DNA from: an uncultured delta proteobacterium
GTDB taxonomy: Bacteria; Desulfobacterota; WTBG01; CAIYCZ01; CAIRTM01
NCBI GenBank assembly: GCA_963804955.1
Contig: CAWDSQ010000007.1
Coordinates: 384,001-448,000, forward strand
Direction of reading: 5' to 3'
Length of the DNA stretch: 64,000 bases
The notes under the pieces were generated by a model, which saw only the letters and a program-made list of their open reading frames with translations, was not told the DNA's origin and searched no databases. The stretch's first letter is position 1. Each line of letters opens with the position of its first letter. The translations under genes were made by a program, and so were the position numbers. Below, piece after piece: positions 3,833-25,289 of the stretch.

Positions 3833-4570
3833 ATGAGCAGGAAATCCCTGCCGGAAGCGTGTTTTGAAATACTGACGCAGAAAATAGAGCTGAGCAGAAT
3901 CCCGGGATTTGAAGATCTGGAGCAGGTTAAGCTGCTAAACGGCGATGCCGGGGGCGGATTAAAAATATATACAGGTGATAAAATCAACCGCGTTGTTATG
4001 GTTGATTTCAAGCTCGGGGAGGGCGTGCCGATTCCGCACCATGAAAACCGGCCGTCAGTAGGCGCGGAAATATTTCAAATTGCCCCGGATTTCAATTACA
4101 AGCTGCCGATATTTGGAATTAATTCCGTTATCATGAAGGATGGCACCTATTATTTTGATACTGACTTTTCATTCGGCTTTGATCTCGTCAGGGACTATGA
4201 TTTTGTGGCAAAATACATTGAGCCCATCCAGGATATGTATACTAAATTTTCACTGCATCCCGATTTTAAGATCATCCCCCTTTCGGAAATGACGACATGG
4301 GTGAGAACGTATATTTCGCCTTTGTTCATTACCGCAATTACCACGGTTGATAAAGTCCAGACGGTATTTGATCTTGCATCGGAATATATAAACCTTTGGG
4401 CGAAAATGCACACAGAAGCAGCGCCTGTCACCGGAGATTTCAAAGAGCTTCAGCAGTCACGAATACAGGCGCAGTATGCCGGCATGAAAAATACCGACAG
4501 GATGGGCAAAGTGCTGCTGAATGCTTTCGGCAAAGAAACGTTCAGCAAATTTTTCAAAGCCATGTCATAA
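3833..4570 (+). CDS. Ferredoxin-dependent bilin reductase (FDBR)/RCCR-like protein
   Basis: PDFNYKLPIFGIN, WVRTYISP, EYINLW and C-terminal DRMGKVLLNAFGKE match the FDBR pattern; 245 aa; AGGAG RBS. Confidence 0.7.
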   Translation: MSRKSLPEACFEILTQKIELSRIPGFEDLEQVKLLNGDAGGGLKIYTGDKINRVVMVDFKLGEGVPIPHHENRPSVGAEIFQIAPDFNYKLPIFGINSVIMKDGTYYFDTDFSFGFDLVRDYDFVAKYIEPIQDMYTKFSLHPDFKIIPLSEMTTWVRTYISPLFITAITTVDKVQTVFDLASEYINLWAKMHTEAAPVTGDFKELQQSRIQAQYAGMKNTDRMGKVLLNAFGKETFSKFFKAMS

Positions 4571-6711: not shown

Positions 6712-8155
6712 TCAACGCTTTTTTGAGAGAACAGAATCAATGGACAGATAGAATGCCTCTGTCACATTTTTCTGATATTTGCCGACGGGAACGCCATTAT
6801 AAATGACCCGCGTTTTGCCCTGCTGAAATTCCCGCGTGTACGGAATTGACCAGTCGGGGTAATCGATCTGTTCATAGACGTCATAGCCTTCAAATCCATG
6901 ATAATTTTTCAGTGCGTGATGAAACAGTGTATCTGAATTTTCTGCAAAAAACTCTATGGGCAAACCGATGACATAGTCATAGCCTTCCTTGATAGCCTGC
7001 AAATATGCCCGGTTTGTCGAAAGATATTTTTCTTTCGGGTCCCACACCGGGTCGGCGAATTCATCCTGACAGATAACAACATTGGTCCTGCCGAAGGCAT
7101 ATGATTTCAAGAGCCCTTTCACATCCTCAACAAGCTTATCGCGGTATTGCGGAGCCAGCTCAAGCCAGGCTTCCCAGCTGAAGTGATCCCACGGCATGCC
7201 ATGCACGGTCACCGCAACGGTAACACTGGAACTCTTCGGGAGGGTATCAAGCCTGTCTTTAAGCATATCTACAAAGGCCTGGCGCATCGGCTGAAATTGG
7301 CCCATGGGGGGGGCCATGATGACTTTGACTTTTTTACCCGGATGCTCGGCTTTCCACTCATTGATATATTCCATGCTGTGCCGGAAGCTTGAGTTAAACT
7401 CTTCAAAATGCGAATAGATCGGCATCGGGGCGGCAAGTACTATTGTTTCGCATCCTTCATCGAGCAATTCGAAAAGCTTTTTTTTCATATTATAGTAGTC
7501 AAGGCTGCTTTCCGCACGAAAGGCGATAGTGCTGTATTTCGAGCGGATTTTATCCAGCGCGCCGTTTATTACTTCAAATGATCCCTGCCAGTGAGGCAGT
7601 TTCTGCTGTTTTATGCCGCGGTTGTAGTACCAGATATTGGCTTTATTCATTGTTTTACCACTCAGGGAGGGCAAGCCGGCCTTATGGCCGGTAAAAAGAA
7701 AATAGCCATGATCGAGATAAATTCTCTTGGACGGCGGCTGCCAGACAACCTCCCCTTTTTTGTATTTTTCAATAAAAGGCTCACCATCTATGTCGTTGTC
7801 ATTGCCATATTGATCAACCAGGCGCGTAGGCTTAAATTCTTCGTGCTCATGATATTTAACGGCATCCAGCAGGGCTACTCCTTTATCGATCTTGGAAAAA
7901 AGCCGAAATGGCCACGGAATAATAGCATTAAAAATTTTCAAAGTTATATTATAGAAAAACGGATATTCCATTTTCTCAGGCATTATCAGGCCGGTTACAA
8001 ATATTCCGACCTTCCCTTCCGGCACACGAATCCTGTATTTTATAATATTCTTCATAATAGTCCGGCTTCTGACGCCGGTTTTTGTATTTTGCAAGGACAG
8101 TATAAAAAACCGATACGGCAATAATGAATACTACAAAGCCCAGTAGAATTTTCAT
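6712..8155 (-). CDS. Membrane-anchored ferrochelatase-like (class II chelatase fold) protein; frameshift near 8030
   Basis: N-terminus MKILLGFVVFIIAVSVFY (ATG 8155) lies in another frame; KVGIFVTG, PMPIYSHF, TVHGMP and PIEFFAENSDTL resemble HemH motifs. Confidence 0.7.
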
Positions 8156-9153: not shown

Positions 9154-10437
9154 TTAATACGCCTGCTGGAGATACGAAATAGTAAACATGCTTTTATCAA
9201 CCTTTTCCGTCCCGACCTCATAAATTTCCTGCAGCGGAAGCGATGCATGGGTGCGCTGAAAATCCAGGAGCATAACCCCGACAATCATGTTTTTCATTTC
9301 ACCCTTCTTGGTCTTGAAGTCCGCATGGAGATATTCAAAGCACTTCCAGGGCCGTTTCAGCTCGTCATACAGTTCGGTATACAGCACTAAATAGGTCTCG
9401 GGATCAACATACCAAACCCGCTTTGAATAAATGTAATTCGGGTCTTTGCTCTTTACTTCAACCACATAGGTCGAAATCCGCTCGCGGGTTACGTTGTTCG
9501 GGATCGCCTGGCCCGGTGCACGCTGAAACATTTTAATGTCCGTATGCCGGGAGCAGAGCATTTCTTTTTTTCCGATCAGCTGATAGGTATTGCGCTGGAT
9601 ATGGCCGTCCCAGCCGTATTCATCGTCATAAATCATATCAGTGCCGTCAATGGTATCGGTGCGCTGGCCGACATTAATGCGCCTGATTCTGCGAAAGGGC
9701 GCATACCACATGTAGCCGTCATCTTCTTTATTCTTGTCAATGTAGCGCAGGTTAAAAAACCGCGAATTCTGGCTTTCCGGCGGATCGTACAGATGCAGAA
9801 ACAAGCCCCCGGTGAATGCCCTTTTCGTTTTTCGTCATATGCCGGAATCGGCTCAACATCGGTACGGTGAATCCAGTACAGCTCCCACTGGTCCTGATGC
9901 GTGGTCCGCTCTATTGCGACGCCGGGCGAAATAACCGGGCCTTTCCGCGCATAGTGGTTGGCATCGCCATGGGTGTTGAAGTCATAGTTCCAGGCGATCT
10001 CAAGCCCGTTTTTTGGATTGGGGAACGGCACGCCTGCAATTTCGGCATAGTTTACGATGTCGCCATCGGCATTCACCTTGACGATCGGGGCATACTTCTT
10101 TGTTGCCGCGATCACTCCTGTTCGTCTCAATCACCTGCGTGATAGGGGGTGATGGAAAAAAACAGGCCGTCCTTCTCGGGGCGCCCCATTTTTTCGGATC
10201 CTTGTACAGCTGAACAATCTGCTCGGGAAGAAATTGCGCGACCTGATCAATATTGCTTTTATCAATCTTCTTGCCGGCCCATGTCTTTTCCCACTCCTGA
10301 ACTTTAGCAAGCTCATCAGCCTTGTATGCTGCAACAGGATACTGCACATCCTGGGCCTGAGCTGCGCCGCAAAACAGAAACATCATGCCGGCTGCCGCTA
10401 TGGATGCTAATGATTTTTTTAATTGTTGTGCTGACAT
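9154..10437 (-). CDS. DUF1329 (LolA-like) periplasmic protein; frameshifted
   Basis: KIDKSNIDQ, GVPFPNPKNGLEIAWN, YAPFRRIRR and YSKRVWYVDPET spread over three overlapping ORFs. Confidence 0.85.
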
Positions 10438-10469
10438 ACAGCCTCCTTATTTTTTATGATTAATACAGA

Positions 10470-12017
10470 TTAAAATTCATAGCGAATTCTGAACAGTATG
10501 CTGTCCTTGTCATGCAGCCCCATATTGGTGCTTGTGGTAGAGCCGTATATGGGAAGAGCCAGCTCCCAGCGCCAGTGGCGCCCGGGGGCATAGGACAAAA
10601 TGGGGCAGAGAAAATATTTTCCTATGGGGTTGTAGCTGCCGGTGAACATGGCCATCACCTGGGAATTGAACAGCTGCTGCGAAACGCTCCAGACAAACTC
10701 GGTGGCGTGGCTGTCACCGGCGCGATGTCCTCTGCCGCTTTCATAAATGATAATATCGTGGAAGTCACCCAGCACTTTTTCATAAAACATGCTCAGGCTT
10801 ATGCTCATTTTTTTGTCATCGGCAAGATTATGGGTGAACCAGGGAATCGTAAACCGGTCGGAATACACAAGGCCCCCGCCGACCGTGTCGCGCTCACACT
10901 CAGCATATATCTCGCTGGACTCATGATTGGTGCCCTTATTGAAATGATTGCCCATTTCATAGAACCATTCAAAGCGCCATTCAGAACCGTGCAGGCTCTC
11001 GATAATCGTCTGTGCGGTTCCGCCGAGCACTTCATAGCGCTTGTAATTAAAAACCTTATAGCCCGGGAACTTGGGGTCTATTTCGGATCCGGTCAGTATC
11101 GATTTAATGCCTGAAAATACATAGGTATTGGCAAATTTACTGAAGTTATCGTTGGCGGTCGGTGAATCGCTGCGGGTATTGAAATAGAATGCGGACCAGT
11201 CTATATCCCAGGCATAGCCCCTGATTTTAAAGCCGACCTCGGTATTTCTCAAAGCCCATCCCGGCGCATCCCGGCGCGCCTTTTCCTGCACCCACTCATA
11301 AATCCCGAACCCCTTGCCCGGATTAAATGAAGTTGCGGCAGGGCTGGGGCCATAATGCGTTCCTTCAATCGGCACCCGGGCATACTTGAAATCGCCGGGA
11401 ATGACAAGCATCTCGAACATGAGATTCCCCGGAAGGTCTGTCTGATAAAATCCCCGCAGCATCCAGAGGCCAAGCTTAATGCTTTCCCAGTCCTCCGTGC
11501 CGGGAGAGCCCTGCCGGACGTCGACCGGATTAATGACATCGGCGGTCCGCTTGATATCGGTTTCCCCCCACACGACTATCTGCTTGCCCGCCCTGAGCTC
11601 GAAGGGGCCCTTGATAAAATGAACATATGCTTCAGTTATAAAATCCTCATCACGGGGGCGCGTATAGTCCTTGTAGGCAAAATCAGGGATTGCCCGCTTC
11701 AGCTGGCTGTCAATCTTCGGCGTATGCTCCCACCAGTACCGCACGCCGGCGAAGAGGTTAATGGTCATGTCCTCCGCCTCATGCAGCTTGTAGAGCGATT
11801 CCAGCATGGCGCTGGTGCGGACAAAATCAAAATTTGACTTGTGAAACCGGTCCTCTTCTTTCGGTATATCCAGGCGCAGAAAAGCCTGCTCCTTGACATA
11901 CCCGTTCATCTGAAGCTTCCCGTCCATGAGAAAAACAGTTGCCTGTGAGGCAGGCGCGGCCAGAAACAGATACACACATCCGAAAATCATACAGGCTGTT
12001 GCTAGTGTTTTTTTCAT
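10470..12017 (-). CDS. DUF1302 family outer-membrane beta-barrel protein
   Basis: Signal peptide, LRAGKQIVVWGETD, DVINPVD, C-terminal RIRYEF. Confidence 0.85.
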   Translation of the reverse strand: MKKTLATACMIFGCVYLFLAAPASQATVFLMDGKLQMNGYVKEQAFLRLDIPKEEDRFHKSNFDFVRTSAMLESLYKLHEAEDMTINLFAGVRYWWEHTPKIDSQLKRAIPDFAYKDYTRPRDEDFITEAYVHFIKGPFELRAGKQIVVWGETDIKRTADVINPVDVRQGSPGTEDWESIKLGLWMLRGFYQTDLPGNLMFEMLVIPGDFKYARVPIEGTHYGPSPAATSFNPGKGFGIYEWVQEKARRDAPGWALRNTEVGFKIRGYAWDIDWSAFYFNTRSDSPTANDNFSKFANTYVFSGIKSILTGSEIDPKFPGYKVFNYKRYEVLGGTAQTIIESLHGSEWRFEWFYEMGNHFNKGTNHESSEIYAECERDTVGGGLVYSDRFTIPWFTHNLADDKKMSISLSMFYEKVLGDFHDIIIYESGRGHRAGDSHATEFVWSVSQQLFNSQVMAMFTGSYNPIGKYFLCPILSYAPGRHWRWELALPIYGSTTSTNMGLHDKDSILFRIRYEF

Positions 12018-12048
12018 ACTGCCCCCTTTAGTTAATGGTGTATGATTT

Positions 12049-14388
12049 TTATTTTCTGCCGACGATAAATGACGGCTTAATAAGGAGGATCAGGCTCGGA
12101 ACAACCAGAAGTGCGCCTATCATGTTCAGCGTCAGCATTACCGCAAGAAGAAGGCCCATGAGGGCCTGAAACATCATTTTTGACAGAAACCAGAAAACGA
12201 TCCCGACAATAAGCGTTGTCGCTACATAAATAACCGCCTTGCCGGTGGTGCCCATGGCTATGGTAACCGCCTCGGACAGGCTTTTTCCGGCCTTGCACTC
12301 CTCGATCATCCGGCTCGCGAGATATATCCCGTAATCAACGCCAAGGCCTATGCCGACTGCCGAAACCGGCAGTATTGCCGTGGTCAGGGGAAGCGGCGGA
12401 TTATTGAGCACCATGAAGGCGCCGGTGAGGAAATTGGAAAGTATAAGAGGTGCGATCATGATGAAGCCTGCAACAAATGACCTGAAAGCCCCTACGCAAA
12501 ATAAAAAAACTATGAACAGCGAGAGAAACAGCGTCAGCAGCTGATATTCCGTAAGCGTTTCATTAATGCCTGCCTGCACCCCGACAGCGCCTCCGGCAAG
12601 CCGGTATTTCATACCTGTACCGGCGATGGTTGATTTGTCTTTTATATATTCATGAATCCTGCCCATAACTTCGCTGATGGTCTGGGCTGTCTTGTCCCTG
12701 CATAAAATAACGATATTCGTATTTTGATCTCCCATGTCGACAAATTTATCAAAGCTTCCCGGGCCGCCCATCTGCATGGCGGAGCGGTAGAGAAACTCGG
12801 TCTGGCTGTCATCTGTCGGGAGAAATTTCCAGCGCGGATCCTGCTCGCGCATCCCGCTGTGTATTCCCGGTATGCGCCCCTGCAGGGTTTGGACCATAAC
12901 GACTTTTTTATTGGGGGTCTGCTTCATATAGCGGGAAAAATTTGCCACTTCGCGGGTTACCGCCGCCCGGGCAACGCCCTGAGCCTTGCCGGTATCCAGC
13001 ACGATATAGAGCGGATTCAGCAGCGGCATTGAAAATGTTATCCTGAAGCTGTCGACATTGTAGCGGTGAAATGGCCAGAGCACCTCTGAGCCGGGGACTG
13101 CGCTGCCGATGGTGATTTTATCCATATAGGTGGCTCCCCAGATGCACAGTGCAACGGCTGCAGCAGTGACTACGTATTTTCCGCTCCGGTTCAGCCACCC
13201 GCCAGTAAGCATAAGAGTCTTATCAAGAAGGCTGCGCTTCTGCGTCTCTGCCTTGAGCGGCATGTATGCAAGCAGCACCGGTATAAACATCAGGGCGACT
13301 ATGATGGTAATAAATGACCAGAATGCGCAGGAAAGGGTGATTTTCTGCAAAATTGCTATGGGCGTGATGGCAATAATAACAATCCCTGAAGCATCGGTGA
13401 GAATGCCGGCCAGGCCGGGTACAAAAAGGCTTTGAATAACCTTTTTGCACGCTACCAGATTATCCCCTGTCTTGCCGGCCTCTTCCTGATAGCGCTTGAT
13501 CACCTGGGTTGAGTGGGATGCCGCCATGGCCGCAATCAGAAACGGGAAGACCAGCACAAGGGGATCAAGGTTGAAATTCAGCAGGCTCAGAAACCCCAGC
13601 CCCCAGATTGCGCTGATGGCCGCTGCCGCTACCGGCAGCAGCATGCCCCGCTTTGAACGAAAGAAAAAATAAAAAACAGCCAGCATGGCAAGGATGGTAT
13701 AGGATACAATTTTTACCACATCGCCCACATAGCTGTCGATATAGCCAAGGTGCATGGGCTCGCCGGCGATAGCTATTATATGGTTGCCATCCTCTGCTTT
13801 TTTGCGCAGCTCCTGCAGCTCTTTAAAGCAGGTTGCATAGTTAATCTGCTCTTCAAAAAAATCCACCATGACAAGAGCGCTCTTGCTGTCAAGGGAGACA
13901 AGCCCGGGATAGCAGGCCGGATTTCCGTAGATATCAAGCTTGAGCTTGTGCAGCTGCTCTTCGGTTTTTGGAACATCGGGCCACATGACCGGCTCTGAAA
14001 CATAGCCCTTACTGGTGAGCTGCATGTTCCTTATTTTTTTCTCTGCTATGGACAGAATTTTATACCGGTCGACGCCTTGAAATTTTTTGAGCTCATCGTT
14101 AATGAATTTAACTTTACCCAGCGTGTCCGGGTTGAAGATATCCTTGTACTTTCCTCCCTTTGCAGGATCCTTCACCTGCACCATGATCAGGACCTGGTTG
14201 GATCCCCCGAAAACATTTCGTATTTCATTGTGAACGTTGATATAGGGATGATTTTGCGGCAGCAGGTCGGTATAGATGGTTTTAACGCTTATTTTGCTTG
14301 CAAAATAGCCGAAAAACAGGGTTGCAATTATAACAAAGCTGAGTACATAATGCCGCCTGTCTATAATGAAATTTGCAATGCGTTCCAT
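12049..14388 (-). CDS. RND/MMPL family transporter
   Basis: 779 aa with two TM bundles; LLPQNHP and GIGLGVDYGIY. Confidence 0.9.
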   Translation of the reverse strand: MERIANFIIDRRHYVLSFVIIATLFFGYFASKISVKTIYTDLLPQNHPYINVHNEIRNVFGGSNQVLIMVQVKDPAKGGKYKDIFNPDTLGKVKFINDELKKFQGVDRYKILSIAEKKIRNMQLTSKGYVSEPVMWPDVPKTEEQLHKLKLDIYGNPACYPGLVSLDSKSALVMVDFFEEQINYATCFKELQELRKKAEDGNHIIAIAGEPMHLGYIDSYVGDVVKIVSYTILAMLAVFYFFFRSKRGMLLPVAAAAISAIWGLGFLSLLNFNLDPLVLVFPFLIAAMAASHSTQVIKRYQEEAGKTGDNLVACKKVIQSLFVPGLAGILTDASGIVIIAITPIAILQKITLSCAFWSFITIIVALMFIPVLLAYMPLKAETQKRSLLDKTLMLTGGWLNRSGKYVVTAAAVALCIWGATYMDKITIGSAVPGSEVLWPFHRYNVDSFRITFSMPLLNPLYIVLDTGKAQGVARAAVTREVANFSRYMKQTPNKKVVMVQTLQGRIPGIHSGMREQDPRWKFLPTDDSQTEFLYRSAMQMGGPGSFDKFVDMGDQNTNIVILCRDKTAQTISEVMGRIHEYIKDKSTIAGTGMKYRLAGGAVGVQAGINETLTEYQLLTLFLSLFIVFLFCVGAFRSFVAGFIMIAPLILSNFLTGAFMVLNNPPLPLTTAILPVSAVGIGLGVDYGIYLASRMIEECKAGKSLSEAVTIAMGTTGKAVIYVATTLIVGIVFWFLSKMMFQALMGLLLAVMLTLNMIGALLVVPSLILLIKPSFIVGRK

Positions 14389-14397
14389 CCCGACCCT

Positions 14398-15477
14398 TTA
14401 TTCTATGATGTTTTTTTCAAGGCCTTCCGGCATTTTGAAACCCTCAAAGATATAGGACATCCCGGAGCAGAAACTCCATGTTTCACCTGCATCGACAGTT
14501 TTAAGAACAGTTCCTGCTGCGCCCACTATCCAGCCCTTCTCCTGGCTGCTGAAAAAAATATCCGCAAGAAGCAGCTTCGACTTAATGGTCTCATCCTGCT
14601 TCTCCCAGGTCAAACCGCCGTCGCGAGACAGCAGGTACGTGCCCTTATTGCCCACAGCCACCCCGCGGTTTCCCTTGATAAATATATTGTAAATCGGCTC
14701 GCCCTTTTTGGTTTTCAATATTTCCCAGGTAGCGCCGCCATCGGCTGTTCGCATGATTGTGGAGTCCATGCCGCATATCCAGCCATGCTGCGCATCGCTG
14801 AAATGCAGGCCGAACAGCGTCGGCCGGGGATTATCGTATTCATCCTCAAGAGTTTCCCGTTTGAAAAACTCCGGAACCACAGGCTCCCAGGTCGCCCCGC
14901 TGTTTGCGGTGCGCAGCAGAATGCCGCCCTCACCGACAATCCAGCCGTTTTCCCGGTCTACAAAACAAACTTTATTGTATATTTTATCCTTTTCACTGCT
15001 TTGCTTTATCCAGGTGTTCCCGCCGTCTTTCGTGTGCAGAATGGTTGAATATTCACCCACCGCCCAGCCCAGGTCCTTGTCTGCAAACCAGACCGCCATC
15101 AGGTGCCGGTTTGTTCCCGTATCCTGGCGCTTCCAGGTGGCGCCGCCGTCAGCAGTGTGCAGCATCACTCCTTTTATGCCGGCGACCCAGCCGTTTTTAT
15201 CGTCTATGAACATGCTGTCGCACAGAAGGCTGTCAACCCCGGATTTTTGCTCCACCCAGGTCTCCCCGCTGTCTGCGGAGTGGTATATGACGCCGAAATC
15301 ACCTGCAATCCATACATTTTTATCATCGGGAGCTGAAACAGAGATCACATCATCGGAGGTGACCATTTTTATATTGGGCATTTTCATTTTTTCCTTGGCC
15401 TTGCCGCACCCCTGCATGACAATACATGCAGTGCTTATGGCGATAATTGCCGCCAAGTGTACATATCGTTTACACAT
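14398..15477 (-). CDS. YCF48-like BNR-repeat beta-propeller lipoprotein
   Basis: Repeated TxDGGxTW and GWxVG motifs; lipobox-like MQGC. Confidence 0.9.
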   Translation of the reverse strand: MCKRYVHLAAIIAISTACIVMQGCGKAKEKMKMPNIKMVTSDDVISVSAPDDKNVWIAGDFGVIYHSADSGETWVEQKSGVDSLLCDSMFIDDKNGWVAGIKGVMLHTADGGATWKRQDTGTNRHLMAVWFADKDLGWAVGEYSTILHTKDGGNTWIKQSSEKDKIYNKVCFVDRENGWIVGEGGILLRTANSGATWEPVVPEFFKRETLEDEYDNPRPTLFGLHFSDAQHGWICGMDSTIMRTADGGATWEILKTKKGEPIYNIFIKGNRGVAVGNKGTYLLSRDGGLTWEKQDETIKSKLLLADIFFSSQEKGWIVGAAGTVLKTVDAGETWSFCSGMSYIFEGFKMPEGLEKNIIE

Positions 15478-15546: not shown

Positions 15547-15753
15547 TTATTCTTCAGTAATGGTTATCGCCTCTTCCGGGCAGGCATCACGGCATGCCAG
15601 GCACATGTGGCACATATCCTTTGCTTCCTCAATCACCTGCGCCCGCTTTTTGCCGTTATCGGTATCGACTAATGTCCAAAGCTCAAGGCCGCACATTTCA
15701 ACACATTTGCCGCAGCCGCGGCATTTAACGGGATCAACAGTATGCCTGACCAT
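15547..15753 (-). CDS. 4Fe-4S ferredoxin
   Basis: CRGCGKCVEMC and CHMCLACRDACP. Confidence 0.9.
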   Translation of the reverse strand: MVRHTVDPVKCRGCGKCVEMCGLELWTLVDTDNGKKRAQVIEEAKDMCHMCLACRDACPEEAITITEE

Positions 15754-15768
15754 AACAAAACTCCCTGT

Positions 15769-16176
15769 TCATAGTGCTGCCTTAACGGCATCAACTGCGT
15801 TTTTAAATTCCTGATCCTGCTCGTACAGCCGGACCATGGCATCAAAAAAAGGAAAAAGCGCCATGAAATGAACTGCCGTATTGGGATCGGTCTTGTCGCC
15901 TTTGATAATTTCTCCCTTTTCCCGGATCTCCATGAGGTCGTAGCTGTTGTCGATCGCGCCACACAGGTCGATATCGGTCATCGCATGGCCGCATGGCAGT
16001 CCTCGCGCATGCCGACTTTCAAGCATAACGGTGCCGTCTTTTATGACGATCGTTGTCTCATCTTTATCCAGCTTCATCCCGACTTTATGGTCCTTGAAAT
16101 CAGCCAGCATCTCCTGAGCGGCGGGGTCGGAATTCGCAAAGCGTACGCCCTGCTGAAGCACATCGATCATTGTCAT
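15769..16176 (-). CDS. SCP2 sterol/lipid-carrier-like protein
   Basis: RBS GGGAG before ATG 16176; TTIVIKDGTV...IIKGD pattern. Confidence 0.5.
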   Translation of the reverse strand: MTMIDVLQQGVRFANSDPAAQEMLADFKDHKVGMKLDKDETTIVIKDGTVMLESRHARGLPCGHAMTDIDLCGAIDNSYDLMEIREKGEIIKGDKTDPNTAVHFMALFPFFDAMVRLYEQDQEFKNAVDAVKAAL

Positions 16177-16193: not shown

Positions 16194-16907
16194 TCAAAAG
16201 AAAATTTCGGGTAGCTGTTCGGAGCCAGGGCAGCGCCACATGCCTTGCCTGCGGGGCGGCAGCTGGATTTTCGAAATACTCCTTCAGCATTGTTTTGACG
16301 CACTGAATTTTCCGCTGCATCTCCTTCCGTTTTGCCGCGATCCTCCGCGGCTGCAGCGGATGCGCAATACTCAATATAGCTTTTCAGGTACTCCGTGTGG
16401 GGCGCAAGCGCGGCAAGCCGCATGCCTTCCCGCTCGATCGGGATGACGGCTGCCGTATACACTATGGAGCGCAGGCCCGCAGGTCGTCGTCCTCTTCCGG
16501 CGTTATGCCGGGCAGGCTTGCAATTTTTCCCACAGGGGGCCGAGCGGCTCGCAAATATTTCTTTCTGTACGGCTCATCAACCAGGCATGTCAACCGTCGG
16601 GATCAGGTCGACGAAAATGCCGACGCTGCTCTTGTCTTCTGTCCCAGCGGGAAAAGAATATCGGCAGTTCATAGCCCTCTGCGGGAATAATCGAGCAGAG
16701 GCCCAGGTTTGCAGACTCGTCGGGAATATTTTGCCCAAGAACAATTTTTTCAATCTTCTCGGCGGTAAAAGCCTGAATGGTTCGCGCTGCCGGGCAGTTC
16801 CGCAGCGCAATATCCCTGCCTTGTAGCTTTTTCGTCCCGGCCAGGGCAAGCGCTTCGAGAACCTCTTTCATTTTTTCAACATACGGCGTCCATGTGATCT
16901 CAGCCAT
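16194..16907 (-). CDS. FDBR/RCCR-like protein with multiple frameshifts
   Basis: Reconstructed across frames: EKIEKIV...IPAEGYELPIF...IFVDLIPTVDMLVDEPYRKKYLEPLGPLWEK...EYLKSYIE...PEIFF*. Confidence 0.65.
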
Positions 16908-16922
16908 TATCCTGCCCTCCCT

Positions 16923-17695
16923 CTAGAAAATAAGACTGACGAATAGTTTCATTTTTTCCTCGCCGAAAAGCTTTTTGATCACCTCTCCGCCCGGATCAAG
17001 GTCGCGGTAGTATTTCTGCAAGGCCCGCTTTCTCGTGAGCATTTCCTGCTTATAGGCGGGATCACGGATGGGCTCGGCTTTTTTCATCATCTCAAGCCAG
17101 ACACGGGCATAGTCGACGACGGCATCAAGCACGGCGAGGCGGTCCTCGGGCTCCTCAACGCGGCCGTCAATCGGGTAGGGGAGAGGGTCGCGCGGGCCCA
17201 TGGCCACGGGGCATACCGGCTTTGCACCAGGCAGCGGCCGTCTTTGGTAAAGCCCGGGAATGGCTGCGGTATTTGCGCCACAGCATCTCGCTACGGGGTT
17301 CGAGATATTTTTTACGGTATTCCGGATGAACGGCGATATCCACGACCGGCATGAGGTCAAGGGTAATGCTGAGCCGCGGCGCGCTCTCGTCGAATTCGCA
17401 GGCCATGATCGGCAAATCATAGTCATCGCTGCAGGTAAAGTTGAGGGCGCAATACTTGGCCCTGCCCATGTAGTGGAGTTCGCCATAGGTTATTTTTTCT
17501 ATTTTGTCCGACCCTTTCAGCACAAAGGGTTTGTAAAACCCGCTGGCAAGGGGCGTCTTGAACTCCCAGGCAGGCCGCGTGTCCACGCCGCATATATGTT
17601 TCCAGCGGCTCCAGCTCCAGTCCCTCGAACATTTTTCGATTCACTACCAGTTCATCTGTAAAGCGAATCATGTCTTTGAAATCAACCCGCGCCAT
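16923..17695 (-). CDS. FDBR/RCCR-like protein with multiple frameshifts
   Basis: YDLPIMACEF, LDLMPVVDIAVHPEYRKKY, DYARVWLE and DLDPGGEVIKKLFGEE; GGAGG RBS before ATG 17695. Confidence 0.8.
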
Positions 17696-17719: not shown

Positions 17720-18027
17720 TTTGCTGCAACACTGCTCCCGGCTATACGATCGACCGCGCCACAAGCTCTGCGAGCATCAATAAGCTTCAGCGGTACGGCA
17801 TATTCCTGCTTCGCGTCGCTGAAATTTTCAATGCACAGCGGACATGCCGCTATCAGCACCTCAGCGCCGGTTTGAACGTCCTTGTCACGCCGTTCACGAT
17901 GCCGCTGTCAACGGGCATACTCTTTTGCCCAGACGCCCGGCCACCGGCCCCGCAGCACCAAGCGTCCCGGCAGCTGCGCTTCATCTGTATAAACCCCGCT
18001 ATGTCTTCCCGGCAGGCAGGGCGCATG
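17720..18027 (-). pseudogene. C-terminal fragment of a CCG-domain Fe-S oxidoreductase
   Basis: MKRSCRDAWCCGAGG and LIAACPLCIENF; N-terminal part absent. Confidence 0.7.
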
Positions 18028-18045
18028 GTAAGTAACCTTTCAAAT

Positions 18046-18101
18046 GTATTCCTTAAGACTACTACGTTGAGGATGATAGTCTTTGAAATACAACTTGTCA
18101 A
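18046..18101 (-). promoter_or_regulatory. sigma70 promoter plus operator-like palindrome
   Basis: TTGACA-17-TATCAT on the minus strand; GTATTCCTTAAGACTAC at 18046-18062. Confidence 0.6.
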
Positions 18102-18420
18102 GAAAAAAGTTTTGTTTTTTAGCAGCCGAATTGACTCAAATTAAATGTAACCCGGGGGATGTTCTGAACGAGCAAAAAAGGTATCGTTGCGTCATATAAC
18201 CGGCAGCCAAAAGGAGTCCATGCATTATGCCCTTACGGTCCAGAAAAGAATATCGCCAGATCACCACACAGCGCTATCAAACAACAGATTGTTGTTTTTA
18301 GATTTCAGGCGCACTAAACATATATAGGGCGATATTTTATATTTATGGGGATAATTGATCGGCTGGAAGAAACAACATGCTTAAAAAAATGATGCGGGAA
18401 AAGCTGCTGCACAAAACATT

Positions 18421-18830
18421 CTACCGGCGGCGGGAGTTGGCAGGGGCGGTGGCCTGTTCCTCTTTGCGTTCCACAGGCCGATGTGCTTCAGGATTTTTTT
18501 GATCAGCTCCGGCAGCTCGATGAACGCAATAACTTTCATTGCACCCCGGCACGTGAGACAGCACAGCGGATCGACTTCCTATATTTTCTGTCTCAGGCGC
18601 GCCCATGTTTTGCGCTGTGCAGGAGACAGTCTGCCGCCTTCGATGATGTGCAAGATACCATCATCTGAGTTTTCTTTTTTTCGTTTACCCCGTGATACGC
18701 AGCGGTACTACCCGTACCAGAGGACCATCTGCTTCCCGCGGTTGGGAACAGGGGAGCACATGGCTCCAATCCATTCCCGGGCATCAAAGGTCTTGAGCTT
18801 TTTGCCCTTTTTTGCTTGATAAACACCCTC
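18421..18830 (-). mobile_element. IS91-family transposase remnant (C-terminal, with stop codons)
   Basis: KTFDAREWIGAMCSPVPNRGKQMVLWYG* and WARLRQKI*EVDPLCCLTCRGAMKVIAFIE...KILKHIGLW. Confidence 0.8.
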
Positions 18831-18902
18831 AGACCGCTTCCTGATGTATGTCCTGCGCTCCGGTAAAAAGGAGGCCCGAATAATGTAACGGGCACTGTTT
18901 TT

Positions 18903-19901
18903 TTAACCGGGCAGAAGCTCCTTGAGCTTATCTTTAAACGCAGGCAGCACCTTTTTCCAGTCGCCGACAACACCAAAATCGGCATAGTTGAAAATAGGCG
19001 CCTCGGGGTCTTTATTTATGGCGATGATACTCTTGGACTGGGCGCAGCCGCTCAAATGCTGTATGGAGCCGGAAAGTGCTATGGCAATATAAATATCGGG
19101 GTTGACAATTTTTCCGGTAATCCCAACCTGCCGGTTGGGGGCCAGCCAGCGATTATCGCAGGCGGGCCTTGAAGCGCCAACCGCGCCGTTCAACAGTGTT
19201 GCCAGCTCCTGCAGTTGATTAAATCCCTCGGCACTGCCGATGCCTCTGCCGCCGCTGACTATTATAGAAGCCTCTTCAAGCCGTACCCCTCCTTCATTTT
19301 CCGTTACCCGTTTCAACAATCTGGCTCGTATGGCTGAAGGGTCCAGGCCGGCATCAATAATAATGACCTCTCCCTGCTTTGAGGCATCGGGCTCCGGGGG
19401 CGGCATGAGCTTGTCCCGCACTGTAGCTATCTGCGGACAGGAGTCGGAGGTGAAGGTAGCCTGGGCATTTCCGCCAAAGACATTTTTAATTTGCAGCAGC
19501 AGCTTTGTGTCAGGGTCAATAGCAAGGCCGACACAATCCAGAGTGGCCGTTGTGTCAAGCCGAAAGGCCAGCATGGGAGCCAGGTCGCGACCGACAGATG
19601 TCTGCCCTAAGATGAGGATCCGGGGCATTACCTGCCTGACTACTTTTTCCATCACTGACAGGTATGCATCTGTCTGGTACTCTTTCAGCAGCGGATCATC
19701 AACAACATATACTGTATCGGCGCCTGAGGCGATAGCCTCTTGAGCCAAACTTCCCACATCACTTCCGACCAGCACCGTGCATAATTCCTGCCCCAGGTCA
19801 TCGGCCAGCTTTCTGCCGAAGCCCAATACCTCCCGGGAAATCGAAGGCAGTGTGCCTTCGGCGATCTCGCAATACGTCATAATGCCGTTATATTCAGCCA
19901 T
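18903..19901 (-). CDS. etfA: Electron transfer flavoprotein alpha subunit
   Basis: IVSGGRG, GASRPA, QVGITGK, SGSIQH and AINKDPEAPIF. Confidence 0.95.
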   Translation of the reverse strand: MAEYNGIMTYCEIAEGTLPSISREVLGFGRKLADDLGQELCTVLVGSDVGSLAQEAIASGADTVYVVDDPLLKEYQTDAYLSVMEKVVRQVMPRILILGQTSVGRDLAPMLAFRLDTTATLDCVGLAIDPDTKLLLQIKNVFGGNAQATFTSDSCPQIATVRDKLMPPPEPDASKQGEVIIIDAGLDPSAIRARLLKRVTENEGGVRLEEASIIVSGGRGIGSAEGFNQLQELATLLNGAVGASRPACDNRWLAPNRQVGITGKIVNPDIYIAIALSGSIQHLSGCAQSKSIIAINKDPEAPIFNYADFGVVGDWKKVLPAFKDKLKELLPG

Positions 19902-20004
19902 GAGATTTACCTTTTTCAGATTAGCTCGCTTCGCTTTTTTCTGCACATACAGTTTGTTTCACAACCTCTAGTCGATCAAGGCTGATGCACTGCCTGATTC
20001 CGGA

Positions 20005-20796
20005 TTACAGGAGCTTGGCTTCCTTCACTTTCTGGGCCAGATTAGCTCCTGCCTCCTCCGGCGTTTCACCTCCTATGATCTGGCACTCGGTTTTCCGGCG
20101 CGGGGGCTCAGCCAGCCTGACGAGGTTCAATCTCTTCAGTCCGGCTGCGTCAATTCCCAGCGCTTGCGCACTGCGCACCGTGATGGGCATCTTCTGAGCT
20201 GCCTGAAGGTCCTTCAACTTGGGGTATCGCAAATCGCCGATCTCGCTGCTCGCGGTAACCAGGGCCGGCAGGGGAGCCTCAACTACTTCATAGCCGTCCG
20301 ACACCACCCGCTCAACCAGCACCTTCCCATCGCTGAGTTCCACTTTGCAGGCAGCAGTAATGCAGGGAATCTTCAAAATCTCGGCAATACCGGAACCCAC
20401 CTGGCCGGCATCCGTATCCGCCGCCTGCCTTCCGCAGAGGATAAGATCGTATTCGCCAATCTCCCGTATGGCGGCGACTAACAGGTGAGCTGTTGCATAG
20501 CTGTCGAGCTTTTCAAAGGCATTGTCTTCCAGCAGGATCAGCTCATCAGCACCCGAAGCTAAAGATTTCCTCAGTACCGGCTTCGCGAGGTTTCGCCCGG
20601 CGCTTATCACCGTTATCCTGGCGCCGTGAGCATCCTTTATCTTGATGGCAGCTTCCAGTGCATTCTCATCGTAGGGACTCATCACCGGCGGGGTGCCTTG
20701 CGGCACTATCACCCGCATTGCTTCAGAGTCGACTTTAGTGCCCGAGGAGGAAGCCTGCGGATCAGGCACCTGTTTAATACAGACGATTATTCTCAT
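20005..20796 (-). CDS. etfB: Electron transfer flavoprotein beta subunit
   Basis: IVCIKQVPD, DENALEAA and GRQAADTDAGQVG. Confidence 0.95.
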   Translation of the reverse strand: MRIIVCIKQVPDPQASSSGTKVDSEAMRVIVPQGTPPVMSPYDENALEAAIKIKDAHGARITVISAGRNLAKPVLRKSLASGADELILLEDNAFEKLDSYATAHLLVAAIREIGEYDLILCGRQAADTDAGQVGSGIAEILKIPCITAACKVELSDGKVLVERVVSDGYEVVEAPLPALVTASSEIGDLRYPKLKDLQAAQKMPITVRSAQALGIDAAGLKRLNLVRLAEPPRRKTECQIIGGETPEEAGANLAQKVKEAKLL

Positions 20797-22445
20797 GTTC
20801 CTTCTCCCTCTTGTGACGGCTCCGCTCCCCAGAAGTAGTTACCACTCCCAACTCCGTTAGGGTCAAGCGCTGCCTTGAGCTTGCGCTGCCAATTGTATTC
20901 CGGCGACCGTGAAAGCTTCTTGGCGCGAGCATCTGCGTCGGCATGCGTAGCCCGTGCCAGCCCGAACAGCATCCCTCCGGGAGGGCGGCCCTGTGCAGCT
21001 TTTAATCTGTCCCCTTCGTCTGAACACTCCGCTGCAGCCTTTGATGAATCAGGGTCCTGTGGATCATAGAAAACAAAATCCTCCCATCCGGTGACACCTC
21101 CGCCGCCTTGTCCACCGACGGGTCCCATCGCCTGGTCACCGGCATCAGCGATTCTGCCGGCATATTTCTTCAATAGCGCCTTGCCGGCTTCGATTTCCCC
21201 GGATGCCCACACATCCGGTGTTGCTACCGAGTTATAGGTATCAATAAAACCGCCGGTGGCCGTGAAATTGACGCTTTTGAAGCAGAGCTTCAGCATGAAC
21301 AAGAGCACGTACTGCTGCATAGCCGGCTCATCTACTACTGCTATGTTCCATCCACCGGTCTCACTCAGTATCTGGTCCAGAACTTTCTTCTGGTACTCAA
21401 GGTCCCGTGGCGTCATACCGACCATAATAAGCTGGAAATTGCGCTGCATCTCTTCAGTCAGCTTTTGTATTTCCGGCGTGTCCAGCAGTTCCGGAATATC
21501 GCAGAGCTGCTTCGTAGGATCGGTTACTATTCTCAGAAAAGCGGCCTGCAGCTCATCGCCCCACATGACGAACTGCCGGTGAGCGATATAGCCTATTTCC
21601 GAGTCGTAGATTCTGTAGATCGCATCAGCAAAGGCCTGCAGGCTGGGGAAGGCCGGGAACGCAGCTTTGAAAAGGTCCTCCGGAAGCTGCGACTTATAGG
21701 ACGGCACGGTACCTTCAATGGCAATCTGCGCCGGGCCGGGCCAATGAACGAGCCGTATGGCAATCTTGGTCACAACGCCCCACCCCCCGGCGCCTCCCAG
21801 GGAGCCCCTGATGATTCCCTGCGTGCTCGGGCCCGGCCCCTCGGCGCAGAACCAGCCGAGGCCTGAACCCTGAGAGCCTGTCCTGAGGATGTCACCCGTA
21901 GGCATGACCCACTCTATGGAAAGAATACTGTCCTGAGGAGAAGCAAAATAGATGACATCCGGCCCCCCGCCCTGAAAACAGCAGGCATTGGCAAGGACCG
22001 AAGTTCCTGCGCCGGCGCCACTGATATGATTGTTCAAACCAACCTTCATGGCTTCGGCCTGAAGCTGCGCAGCAACCACATACGGCTCAACCACGGCAAA
22101 CATATTTTGCTCGTCTATTTCCAGTATTTTATCCATCCGCCTCAGGTCCATGAGGATCTGCCCCTTGGCCGGCACGGCAGCCCATGGTCCCCACCCCGTA
22201 CTGAAGCAATGATACTGTATCTTATAGCGGTTGCAGGCTTTAACAATAGCCTGAACATCCTCCGTACTTCCCGGCATAAGCACGGCCTCGGGCCTGTCAA
22301 AGAACTTGCTGCCGCCGGTTACGTCGGTTACGAGCTCAGCCATCCATTGATAAGCATATGAATCCAGCGTCGCCGGCTCCTCCGTGATATTATCCGGCCC
22401 CACAATACCTTCCAGGGTTTCATATACTTCTCTGGGTAATGCCAT
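20793..22445 (-). CDS. FAD-binding oxidoreductase (GlcD/VAO family)
   Basis: PEAVLMP, DLRRMDKILEID, AVVEP and KAALDPNG. Confidence 0.85.
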   Translation of the reverse strand: MALPREVYETLEGIVGPDNITEEPATLDSYAYQWMAELVTDVTGGSKFFDRPEAVLMPGSTEDVQAIVKACNRYKIQYHCFSTGWGPWAAVPAKGQILMDLRRMDKILEIDEQNMFAVVEPYVVAAQLQAEAMKVGLNNHISGAGAGTSVLANACCFQGGGPDVIYFASPQDSILSIEWVMPTGDILRTGSQGSGLGWFCAEGPGPSTQGIIRGSLGGAGGWGVVTKIAIRLVHWPGPAQIAIEGTVPSYKSQLPEDLFKAAFPAFPSLQAFADAIYRIYDSEIGYIAHRQFVMWGDELQAAFLRIVTDPTKQLCDIPELLDTPEIQKLTEEMQRNFQLIMVGMTPRDLEYQKKVLDQILSETGGWNIAVVDEPAMQQYVLLFMLKLCFKSVNFTATGGFIDTYNSVATPDVWASGEIEAGKALLKKYAGRIADAGDQAMGPVGGQGGGGVTGWEDFVFYDPQDPDSSKAAAECSDEGDRLKAAQGRPPGGMLFGLARATHADADARAKKLSRSPEYNWQRKLKAALDPNGVGSGNYFWGAEPSQEGEGT

Positions 22446-22461
22446 AGGTAATTCCTTCCTG

Positions 22462-23743
22462 TTAGAGTGCTTCGCGCACAAGATCTAAAATGTCATACAC
22501 TTTCATCGTTTCATTACGATCCGTAACGGCATCAAGAAAATTTCGCTCACAATGGGGACAGGCGCTCACGATCGCCTCGGCGCCCGTGGCCTGTGCCTCT
22601 GCAATCCTCTCTCCGGCAGTCCATGAGGAGAATTCCGGGTACCGTTCCCGCACCCCTGCGCCGGCGCCGCAACACCACGCATATTCCCTGTTTCTTTCCA
22701 TCTCGACGAGCTTGATACCCGGAATGCTTCTCAGTACATTCCGCGGCGTGTCATACACTACCCTGTGCTCCGTTATACCGGGGCTTGCGTGGCTCCCATA
22801 CCAGGATCTGCCCGCGAATTTTCTTCTGCTCGCCCTTCCAGGGCACATGGGGTTCTCCGCGTCTTCCCAGATGGCAGGGATCATGATAGGTGACCGTCAG
22901 GGGAACTTCTTTTGTAAATTTCAGCTTGCCTTCATTAATAAGCCGTTCAAGAAATTCCGTGATGTGAATGACCTCGAACTTATAATTTTTCAACTCATCA
23001 GGATACAGGCGCTTGAATGCATGGTAGCAATCGGAGCAGCCGGTAACCACTGTTTTTACCCCTGCAGTAGTCCAGGCTTCTTGATTATTCTCAGCATATT
23101 TGAGAAATTCCCCCCGATAGCCCATATCACAAACCCTGCCGCCGCAGCAGTTCTCATCTCGCCCCATGATGCCGAAATCAATGCCGGCATTTTTAAGCAG
23201 GCCCACCACCGTTCTGGGTATCCTCCAGAGCTCCTTATCAAAACTGTATCGACAGCCGACGTGGAACACAACTTCAGCCTTCTCCCGGGTGAGATCTTTT
23301 ACCTCCAGACCCTCGGCCCAGTTGGCGCGATCAGCCTTGGGCTCCATCATCATGTTGTCCTCCTTGCGGAGGTGCTCTATGAGGGGAATATCCTGAAACG
23401 GGAAGCAGCCTTTGTCTATCATTTCAAATCGTAATTGACGCATCACCTCTACGGGTTCCAGATCATACCGGTTAACCTTGCAGGCAACGTCACAGCACCC
23501 GTCCAGCATGCATTTGAAAACGATGTCCACCAGCCCTTCATCAAAGTAACTGCTCCTCTCCTCGAGAAGGGACAGGGACGTGCTTAATCGTCCACTGGCC
23601 GAATAGCTCTGAAACTTGTTATACTCTATGCTGGGACAGCCTTTTGCAAAGCGCCAACTCTTCACATGGGCAAGCGGGATCCATTTGCAGTATGAGCACT
23701 TGGCGCATCGTGCTGCGGTTGCCCTATAATCTTCCAGTGCCAC
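22462..23743 (-). CDS. Fe-S/CCG-domain oxidoreductase (GlcF/HdrD-like); frameshift at ~22800
   Basis: CAKCSYC, CCGG, TYHDPCHLGR, WCCGAG and SACPHC. Confidence 0.9.
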
Positions 23744-23773
23744 TTTATACCTCCTGTTTGGTTTAGCCCCGGC

Positions 23774-25289
23774 CTAAAAACAAAGCTTGCCGGGGTTCAA
23801 TACATTATTGGGATCGAATAGTGCCTTCAGCTGCTTTGACAGAGCCGTATGCTCGGGATTTCTACCATAGGCCATGTCTGACCAAATTCCGTATGGGCGG
23901 GTATAGAAGGCTCCCTGGTTTGACAGTTTTTCACTGGCCTTGGCGAACAGCCCCTGAACCATGGCTACCTCCTTCTCGTCGCCCGGATCATAGGGCAGAC
24001 TAAATTCCACATGGCAGCTTGTTCCCATGTGCGTCGGCTGAATATACATGCCCAGATCCGGTAGCGGATAGCTGGAGGCTTCCGCCAATTCGCTCATCGT
24101 CGCTGTGAACTCGGGCGCTCTGTTCAGTGTGGTGAGAAAAAAGATGTCCTGGCAGCCGCCCTTGTTGCGAAGTTTCCAGTACGGTTCTTTTGAGGGATTA
24201 AGCACTGCTTCCGCCACCTGTCCGCCTGTTGCCCCGGGAATTGCCGACTCCGGACGCACGTTACATTGCTGAGCTATATCGGTAATATCCTTTTCGAGAA
24301 ATTCAACCCGTTCCTGCGCAAGTGATGTCACGCCCGGTCACACCCAAAACGAGCGTCCACGGGGGCAACTCTTTGCGCAAGGACATAACCTGCTCAGTTT
24401 CTTCTCCCAGGAGAGACGCTAAAGCGGATCTGTTTATCAGCATTAATTCATCATGAAACCGTATCCGCAAGAGCTTATAAGCAAAGCCGATAAGAGTTTC
24501 AAGCCCATCAGCAGGCACCAGGAAAAACTTTTGAGCCTTGGGCAGCACTTCGCATCTCAGCGATGCCCAGGTGACAATACCCATGGTTCCCTGGGCTGCC
24601 GACACCAGTTTATGATAATTAAACTGCCCGGGGCCATATTGGTAGAGCGCCGTACCCTGTATTTTTTTTTGTTTTTCAAGCAGTTCTTCTATCGGGACGA
24701 GTTTCTCCTCCTCCCTGGTGGAGGTGCTGACACCGGCGCCGGCAAGCTCACCGGTCCGAAACATCTCTCCGTTGCCCATGACCGTTTCAATACACCGCAG
24801 CGGCTCATTCAGCGACCAGGCATACCGGGGGTTCGTTATCGGCTCTCGTTCCAAAACACTGCCCAGCACGGATTTAGTGGCACGCGGTTTCAATGGCATG
24901 GAAAGTCTCAGGCCTTGCTTGGCCAGTTCCGGCTGAAGCTGGCTAAAGGTCACCCCTGGCTCAATAAGAGCCACCCGGTTCCTCCGGTCCATCATGATAA
25001 TCCGCTTCATTCCGCTCAGGTCCACAATAACCGCCCCCTCTGAGGCGGGAACACTGTCGCCACGGAAGTGCGGCGGCCCTGAGCTTACCGGAACCAGCGG
25101 CGTTTTTGTCTGGTTGGCCCACTTTACTATACCCTGCACTTCATCGGCATTCTTAGGCCTTACCACCATCAGGGGCTTCCTTGACGGGACAAAGCTGTGG
25201 TCCCTGGAGTACTCATCCAATGTAGCCGGATCATCGATTACATTCTCCGCACCAACAATCTTTATGAGCTCATCTTTTTTTTCGGCCAT
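23774..25289 (-). CDS. FAD-binding oxidoreductase (GlcD-like); frameshift at ~24320
   Basis: VVRPKNADEV, VDLSGM, QGTMGIVT and LFDPNNVLNPGK. Confidence 0.9.

Follow-up and report, generated by a model that had tools for sequence, protein, structure and literature searches.

A conserved cassette of two bilin reductase-fold paralogues, an SCP2-fold protein and a 2[4Fe-4S] ferredoxin, predicted to form a heterodimeric reductase, in an apparently anaerobic, non-phototrophic bacterial lineage

Characterised ferredoxin-dependent bilin reductases (FDBRs) act after heme oxygenase, and red chlorophyll catabolite reductase (RCCR) acts after an oxygenase, and it is on this dependence that the available part of Rockwell et al. 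2023 (PMC10151467) builds its proposal of an origin with oxygen for FDBRs, RCCR and CPOX. In the accessible portion of PMC13446030, FDBRs figure as monomers, and the acid pair of the bilin reductase GtPEBB is catalytic according to the accessible text of PMC6755814. A 64,000-nucleotide stretch of an uncultured delta proteobacterium (the window; assembly GCA_963804955.1, contig CAWDSQ010000007.1, positions 384,001 to 448,000) carries, on the minus strand, a cassette of four genes, comprising gene A (16923..17695) and its paralogue B (16194..16907), both with the FDBR/RCCR fold, gene C (15769..16176) and a ferredoxin gene (15547..15753). This cassette is FDBR/RCCR-like in fold and catalytic residues, but lies outside either family by membership criteria. 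It may encode a heterodimeric reductase for scavenged greasy tetrapyrroles, a reading evenly poised between holding and failing, with substrate and activity deduced and the binding of A to B taken from a model.

A and B are confirmed as paralogues sharing the bilin-reductase/RCCR fold. The C-terminal piece of the frameshifted A matches PF05996 (E 3.6e-7) and its middle piece PF06405 (E 0.006), while the intact A of the same genus (P0001) scores 48.1 bits against PF05996, above the cut-off of 31, and 18.1 bits against PF06405, below the cut-off of 24.9, with the best PF06405 match in the window's genome reaching 17.6 bits. Intact B (P0002) falls below the PF05996 cut-off (20.5 bits; cut-off 31), and the profiles of A and B align with a probability of 99.9 and 24 % identity (hhalign). 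The AlphaFold model of A (pLDDT 90.8) matches every FDBR and RCCR entry with Z-scores of 20-25, the next unrelated fold scoring 4.5. The best matches are GtPEBB (6qx6; Z 25.5, root-mean-square deviation (rmsd) 2.1, 226 aligned) and tomato HY2 (6kme; Z 24.0, rmsd 2.4, 228 aligned), with PcyA (Z 22.7), PebA (Z 22.0), RCCR (Z 21.4, rmsd 2.8, 230 aligned) and CPOX (Z 17.5) scoring lower. GtPEBB (E 3e-12) and HY2 (E 1e-8) are also the best sequence matches of the A profile in the PDB, while RCCR is absent among its sixteen PDB matches with E values up to 10. Membership of the FDBR/RCCR superfamily, which an earlier note on this DNA had proposed from sequence motifs, is thus borne out by both a profile match (PF05996) and a structure match. 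The "RCCR-like" label of that note stands as regards the shared superfamily fold and the position of A on the RCCR side of the tree described below, but is too narrow for a protein that is nearer to PebB/HY2 by sequence and structure, and the grouping of which with RCCR is rejected (p 0.0225 in the approximately unbiased (AU) test).

The motifs from which that note was drawn are all present in the window on the minus strand, spread over several frames, with LPIMACEF and LDLMPVVDIAVHPEYRKKY sharing one frame of A, VWLE and DLDPGG...LFGEE another, and SRW located in B. Likewise, the acid pair that the note had seen in A is conserved, with E100 (codon 17397-17395) found in 47/47 sequences and D232 (codon 16997-16995) in 38/47. 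The pair aligns with the Asp of PebA/PebB/PebS and the Glu of RCCR (equivalents of GtPEBB Asp99/Asp219), with Glu at the first site also occurring in cyanobacterial RCCRs and in 3agb. The RCCR residues, which are visible in the 3agb alignment, are presumably those numbered E154 and D291. The partner B lacks both acids; Arg occupies the first site, as the note had it, in 41/55 sequences (codon 16649-16647 in the window) and is otherwise replaced by variable residues, a conserved acid is lacking at the second site, and the C-terminal lid is diverged and poorly conserved. In a group of A homologues (P0083-P0106), Ser replaces the second acid (9/47 aligned sequences) and PF06405 marks occur; this group may have another activity.

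The A profile retrieves 130 matches with E values up to 0.001 from 1.84 billion representatives. In the main tree (60 rows, LG+G4, 243 columns, unrooted; 56 near-duplicate or long-branched rows omitted), a split with support of 100/98 separates the characterised FDBRs from the RCCR side, where the RCCR rows are cyanobacterial and bacterial RCCR-like proteins. The tree contains long branches, and its rows include neither plant RCCR nor known pre-PcyA or PcyX. A, B, P0243 and three other paralogues from the window's genome form a clade on the RCCR side (99/96), separate from the RCCR clade (99/94), although the sister grouping of A and B is supported by only 73/72. A quick tree of 116 rows shows the same main splits. 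Including these three, the main tree holds seven paralogues of the genome other than A and B, spread over three or more places; three group with the characterised FDBRs, the RCCR clade takes in one (window 3833-4570), and the A/B clade the remaining three. For a PebA-like paralogue, no match was found among phages, and the plasmid matches are only to cyanobacterial PebA/PebB. In the quick tree, a long branch of the A/B clade carries P0274, a 415-amino acid FDBR-fold protein from a Chloroflexota (Dehalococcoidia) record.

An assignment of A as an orthologue of RCCR (plant RCCR, PDB 2zxl/3aga; cyanobacterial RCCR-like proteins, PF06405) is rejected on the basis of the clade separation, the AU test and the sub-threshold PF06405 score. 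A does share with RCCR the fold, the Glu at the first acid site, an Asp in a D-P-G-type motif and the side of the deepest split, but PaO, which would provide red chlorophyll catabolite (RCC), was not found in the host, and the cassette differs in having a dead-looking paralogue in a predicted heterodimer, an SCP2 partner and a 2[4Fe-4S] ferredoxin. Orthology to PebB/HY2 is similarly rejected, since forcing A into this group gives a p-AU of 2e-5, A falls outside the FDBR clade and it scores 35 bits against the PebB equivalog (cut-off 327); heme oxygenase was also not found in the host. The tandem arrangement of A and B resembles the PebA-PebB gene pair, but the second cassette gene lacks both acids. 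The claim of a new FDBR lineage in the earlier note can thus be retained in so far as A and B form their own clade on the RCCR side. It is weakened by P0243, one of the nearest relatives of A and a member of the same clade, which clusters with the Ca. Schekmanbacteria protein OGL44139.1, as sequences of this taxon already occur in the uncharacterised RCCR-side outgroup of PMC10151467. In the accessible part of that source the outgroup is given without function, gene context, heterodimer or expansion, and members of the present lineage may already be among its sequences.

Both A (255 amino acids in intact orthologues) and B (240 amino acids) are frameshifted in the window. When aligned with intact copies from the same genus, A is divided into four frame pieces (amino acids 1-35, 36-143, 145-171 and 171-255) and B into at least four, while C contains one compensating indel pair. 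Frameshift-aware alignment, as advised in the earlier note, rebuilds A and B as real genes with their conserved residues kept and in-frame stops absent. The codon-wise dN/dS ratio, with indel codons skipped, is 0.11 for A (0.10-0.11 among intact orthologues), 0.155 for B and 0.06 for C, and 75/76 and 58/58 well-conserved residues are retained. Frame switches occur in 21/80 gene comparisons with same-genus open reading frames (ORFs), three of the 80 being A itself, and rpoB is also split over two frames in this assembly. Furthermore, these genes carry other indels in a second genome with long contigs, contigs of relatives derived from four read runs lack the indels of the window, and the promoter is intact. 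On account of the dN/dS of A and the broken rpoB, the frameshifts are read as assembly errors, very probably correctly, and A and B are probably not true pseudogenes, judging from dN/dS and residue conservation. That they represent recent pseudogenes in this strain is improbable, and is a question separate from that of function, as the family is intact in other genomes even if this were so. It draws on the net number of frame switches, three in A and no fewer than three in B, compared with intact ETF, YCF48, MMPL and DUF1302 genes nearby, an intact rpoC and an assembly background of only ~31 switches per 31,022 amino acids compared, as well as on one changed invariant residue (R157S). Reads of the source sample were not found among 22 runs, the best of which shared 0.13 of its sequence words; these runs support no statement on habitat, and partial coverage in one RNA run is no evidence of transcription.

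Modelling of the A-B complex, which the note had also proposed, gives a score of 0.92, while the best of three controls scores 0.00; the score mark is reached by 116/157 solved complexes and 2/215 mismatched pairs, counts that are approximate and rest on the authors' own alignments. At least 77 % of contacts are common to the model runs, with a pLDDT of at least 89 for B. This comparison covered the hetero pair and the three controls. The predicted interface is pseudo-symmetric (A 119-135, 151-171 and 219-227; B 106-126, 130-152 and 202-210) and is more conserved than the remainder of the protein in B (0.74 vs 0.61, p 0.003), with no difference in A (0.74 vs 0.73), while the C-terminal lid is less conserved in B than in A (0.43 vs 0.77). 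This conservation pattern of B is that of a scaffold subunit. According to the models, A and B thus probably bind as a pseudo-twofold heterodimer of a catalytic and a non-catalytic subunit, in contrast to the monomers described for FDBRs in the accessible part of PMC13446030. The earlier note had left the choice between such a heterodimer and sequential enzymes; the model score, the interface conservation of B and the gene order favour the former. That both proteins are enzymes acting in turn like PebA/PebB, touching only for hand-over of the intermediate, is highly improbable. In its favour, tandem paralogues also occur in pebA-pebB, several polar residues are invariant in B alone (K58, C75, S90, E94, D104, R147, S151, T155 and R167) and a channelling pair could likewise score high in a complex model. 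Against it, the acid pair that B lacks is retained in PebA as well as in PebB, the lid helices of B show little conservation, and the block of B that is conserved forms the interface.

Gene C, a fourth conserved gene which lies between B and the ferredoxin gene and was not mentioned in the earlier note, encodes a protein of 135 amino acids without a Pfam match at E 0.01, the SCP2 family included. Its model (pLDDT 92.6) matches SCP2 proteins (Z 10.3, rmsd 2.5, 98 aligned), the ten best rows being all SCP2-type, and UbiJ is its best Foldseek match. This sterol-carrier/UbiJ-like fold points to a greasy substrate, and C is probably a carrier of hydrophobic substrates. It resembles the UbiJ/UbiT-type SCP2 accessory proteins of multi-enzyme complexes in fold and in being encoded with Fe-S-dependent enzymes, but shares only 10-20 % identity with them, and its partners are FDBR-fold proteins rather than ubiquinone enzymes. 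The ferredoxin of 68 amino acids, which the note had placed near the pair as a 4Fe-4S type, is a 2[4Fe-4S] dicluster by profile match and the probable electron donor.

The order of these genes is strictly maintained, with B following A in 39/39 uncut loci, C following in 38/38 and the ferredoxin gene in 17/17. These were counted among 42 loci, 24 from the compared genomes and 18 from named records, some of which derive from the same genomes; the named records are mostly delta-proteobacterial or Thermodesulfobacteriota metagenome-assembled genomes. A has close orthologues in 24/40 relatives from four families (identity of 63-90 % across the searched piece), and 117 proteins, mostly of 255 amino acids, match intact A. 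The cassette has a strong sigma-70-like promoter (TTGACA-17-TATCAT, 11/12 positions; 18073..18101, minus strand) ~380 bases upstream of A, and a near-identical site is found in same-genus loci. That A, B, C and the ferredoxin act together as one functional module in scavenging could equally well prove right or wrong. The promoter sits within the remnant of a CCG-domain (GlcF-like) gene, which is also present in same-genus loci and is adjoined by short ORFs that may represent a transposase remnant; together these features cover 17776-18101 and 18381-18985.

The genome containing the window is 87 % complete and was compared within a set of 41 genomes. It encodes acetyl-CoA synthase, while dsrA, a marker of sulfate reduction, was not found. 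Searches for heme-copper oxidase (COX1) detected it in 0/17 genomes within the family of the window and in 4/41 overall, and those for the type I reaction centre in 0/41 genomes, with no type II reaction centre in the window's genome. Phototrophy is rejected on the basis that a reaction centre was not found in the searched genomes, and the host is, as far as searched, the non-phototrophic anaerobe that the earlier note had supposed. Heme oxygenase (PF01126) was found in 0/41 genomes with a profile that matched 3/14 controls, HutW being the only other heme-opening family searched, and PaO (PF08417) in 0/41 with a profile that matched 2/14 controls. HutW/ChuW gave weak matches in 39/41 genomes, none of them above the cut-off, which are read as HemN/HemW-type proteins. 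Chlorophyll synthase scored above the cut-off in 0/41 genomes, and the staygreen dechelatase profile matched 0/41, but also none of the controls. Biliverdin or RCC, with which the note had suggested assays, are doubtful as native substrates, given that heme oxygenase and PaO were not found in 41/41 genomes. As the host shows no oxygenase that would make them, the substrate would rather be imported (bilins, phyllobilins or chlorophyll derivatives) or a closed ring.

Genes resembling those of tetrapyrrole metabolism are numerous in the window's genome. These include eleven PF05996 matches, seventeen GGR-family and five ferrochelatase-like matches, a BchF-like gene (found in 11/41 genomes overall) and a cluster of two NifH-like genes with BchN/Y-like and BchB/Z-like genes (DPOR/COR-like; nitrogenase-like genes occur in 23/41 genomes). 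Eight BchE matches are all far below the cut-off, and a class I chelatase was not found in this genome. Among 301 genomes of the phylum, PF05996 matches are restricted to ten genomes of the window's order, with six to at least nine copies each, and are found in 0/291 others, in a survey whose draw evidently missed f4 and f5, two families with A orthologues. In a further family (f3), A, BchF, nitrogenase-like and chelatase H genes are each found in 0/8 genomes, which represents one contrast among kin.

Downstream of the cassette, co-oriented genes encode an envelope transport set (9154..15477, minus strand), comprising a YCF48/BNR protein (14398-15477), an MMPL/RND protein (12049-14388), DUF1302 (10470-12017) and a frameshifted DUF1329 (9154-10437), and this YCF48/MMPL/DUF1302/DUF1329 set also recurs beside the cassette in relatives. 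The available part of 10.1101/2020.07.04.188060 ties a DUF1302/DUF1329/RND/BNR set to growth on fatty esters in Pseudomonas. Scavenging is favoured over synthesis because the operon continues into this set, and because heme oxygenase, PaO, chlorophyll synthase, a reaction centre and, in the window's genome, a class I chelatase were not found. If so, C would hold the greasy substrate and carry it from the envelope transporter, the 2[4Fe-4S] ferredoxin would pass single low-potential electrons to the substrate on A, protons would be delivered via E100 and D232 as in known FDBRs, and B would stabilise A or shape its entrance. The substrate may be an imported chlorophyll-, bacteriochlorophyll- or heme-derived pigment, perhaps with a phytyl or prenyl tail, or a foreign open-chain bilin, and its reduction by A would be one step of oxygen-free pigment scavenging in an anaerobic Desulfobacterota-type lineage. 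The fold, residues, gene order, selection, genome content and tree position are observed, while the electron path, the role of C, the substrate and the direction of the pathway are deduced.

A number of observations weigh against scavenging by such a heterodimer. An oxygen-free ring-opening enzyme was not found (HutW above the cut-off in 0/41 genomes), the DUF1302/DUF1329/RND/BNR set may transport in either direction, as the similar AmeABCD set is described as a monoterpene exporter (PMC6394551), and the DPOR-, BchF-, BchE-, GGR- and chelatase-like genes of the lineage score far below the equivalog cut-offs, so that their tetrapyrrole role is itself presumed. The second acid of A is replaced by Ser in nine of the aligned sequences, and HY2 is active with an Asn at the first acid site, such that lost acids alone do not prove that B is dead. 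The A-B model score may reflect an interface common to paralogues across the family, or remembered solved RCCR dimers, and indels are far denser in A, B and C than in the flanking genes. Lastly, the class I chelatase H subunit (PF02514), which is found in 19/41 genomes, although not in that of the window, fits synthesis, and in one non-phototrophic relative (G007; locus L116:1003-6152) it scores 1038 bits against BchH, above the cut-off of 829, and has a BchI-like neighbour.

These chelatase genes would suit a biosynthetic module, which builds or remodels a home-made reduced tetrapyrrole pigment or cofactor with the BchH/I-, BchE-, DPOR- and BchF-like proteins and exports it through the RND set. 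Known FDBRs are biosynthetic, and genes for B12 radical SAM and BchN/B-like proteins accompany FDBR cassettes of the lineage. For Ca. 'Anaeropigmentia', a class of Desulfobacterota, a comparable set of genes is read as bacteriochlorophyll synthesis in the available part of 10.1101/2021.03.22.436540, where neither "bilin" nor "red chlorophyll catabolite" is mentioned. As described there, this taxon resembles the host in being anaerobic Desulfobacterota with a Wood-Ljungdahl pathway, without chlG or a reaction centre and with bchE/chlLNB/bchXYZ/bchF/chlP-like genes, a likeness by gene content, but it is reported to have a cbb3 oxidase, unlike the window's family. Synthesis is, however, rather unlikely. 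A class I chelatase was not found in the window's genome, and A orthologues occur in genomes without PF02514 (G002, G009, G018 and G030) and in genomes without nitrogenase-like genes (G005, G007, G011 and G012). Chlorophyll synthase and a reaction centre were not found, and with at least eleven divergent paralogues in each genome, several different substrates are easier to reconcile than a single product.

The SCP2 fold of C and its match to UbiJ are also what would be expected if the FDBR fold now serves another kind of greasy substrate than a tetrapyrrole, such as an isoprenoid, quinone, terpenoid or steroid, and C has a role like that of UbiJ/UbiT. The seventeen GGR-family genes fit such a role, as does the transporter, since a similar AmeABCD set tied to monoterpenes is described as a monoterpene exporter in the available part of PMC6394551. 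The fold is evidently repurposable, as it also forms a chain in the chloroplast Ycf2-FtsHi motor (8xks, 8xqw). This remains decidedly unlikely given that A retains the FDBR acid pair, and that FDBR genes of the lineage are repeatedly found beside chelatase-like, DPOR-like, HemG-type flavodoxin and PNPOx-barrel genes. The folds of all four handle tetrapyrroles elsewhere.

Several of these neighbours are present in the window, where the third FDBR-fold gene (3833..4570, plus strand), that of the RCCR clade, adjoins a GGR-like gene (423-1736) and a PNPOx-barrel gene (1751-2296). Directly upstream of this FDBR gene are two tandem genes (2428-3776) whose products have Tat-like N-termini, conserved Cys motifs and no Pfam match, and homologues of which adjoin A in loci L031 and L057. 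A ferrochelatase-like gene (6712..8121, minus strand; profile match) and further divergent chelatase-like genes (29173-32989) encode large, highly divergent proteins, a number of which have a signal-like N-terminus and repeats rich in Cys and Asp. This family recurs beside FDBR genes in relatives and represents candidate exported (de)chelatases. Upstream of the cassette and co-oriented with it are ETF alpha/beta and GlcD/GlcF-like FAD and Fe-S oxidoreductase genes (18903..25289, minus strand), which often adjoin the cassette in relatives. Overall, the neighbours recurring around the cassette comprise GGR-like, chelatase-like, GlcD/GlcF-like with ETF, PNPOx-barrel, HemG-type flavodoxin and further FDBR genes. 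PorB-like, NuoE/NuoF/NuoG-like and GGR-like genes are often located just upstream of the cassette or the window's island (L084:8308-14000, L052, L055 and L057), and are a possible source of reduced ferredoxin.

Other FDBR cassettes occur in the lineage. A second type (L085:8482-16324 and L086:14234-18998) encodes an FDBR, an SCP2-like protein, two ferredoxins, another FDBR and a B12 radical SAM protein, and lies near heavy-metal ATPase genes and BchN/BchB-like genes; its first FDBR has Ala and its second Asp at the first acid site. In locus L087, an FDBR gene closes a nifH-nifH-bchN-bchB-like operon. Fusions of ferredoxin to FDBR, which tie the fold to 4Fe-4S donors, are encoded in the window's genome (C20; L079:6599-8368), where one is followed by another frameshifted FDBR gene, and are also represented by P0250, P0259 and P0302. 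Nitrogenase-like clusters, with up to three sets per genome, are found at 49-54 kb of contig C7 of the window's genome (L082:8863-13893) and in L085-L089, their BchB/Z-like proteins having a PCP_red domain. They score far below all DPOR, COR and Cfb cut-offs and are linked to FDBR, GGR and chelatase-like genes, and, by these sequence features, probably constitute a new group of nitrogenase-like tetrapyrrole reductases.

The accessible literature yielded no account of the cassette, nor of any heterodimeric FDBR or any expansion of FDBRs among anaerobes, and the published outgroup of PMC10151467 may nevertheless hold sequences of the lineage. The available part of a preprint on chlorophyll degradation (10.64898/2026.03.19.712979) reports RCCR homologues only alongside PAO, and the term "anaerob" does not occur in it. 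New elements are the apparent heterodimer of a catalytic and a non-catalytic subunit, its association with an SCP2-fold protein and a 4Fe-4S donor, and the expansion of the family across a lineage of anaerobes. Whereas the characterised families follow an oxygenase, a predicted heterodimeric, SCP2-assisted and 4Fe-4S-linked form is here conserved in anaerobes in which neither oxygenase was found, and among the 301 genomes of the phylum the FDBR family is expanded only in the window's lineage. The four small soluble proteins have intact orthologues and can be expressed and assayed at once, which opens two questions to experiment, namely which organisms of anoxic sediments transform chlorophyll and other tetrapyrroles, and for what reason certain Desulfobacterota that are not phototrophic retain bacteriochlorophyll-type genes without a reaction centre. 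Tentatively, and with the balance tilted against it, the cassette may be one enzyme in an undescribed oxygen-free route by which a specialised sediment lineage takes up and reduces chlorophylls and other tetrapyrroles as a carbon source or electron sink. As a single anaerobe has paralogues close to RCCR, others close to the characterised FDBRs and others again in a separate clade, the superfamily could then have its origin in oxygen-free tetrapyrrole chemistry and have been recruited twice into oxygen-linked pathways, which would go against the origin with oxygen proposed in the available part of PMC10151467. If true, the "orphan bacteriochlorophyll genes" of such non-phototrophs would be catabolic.

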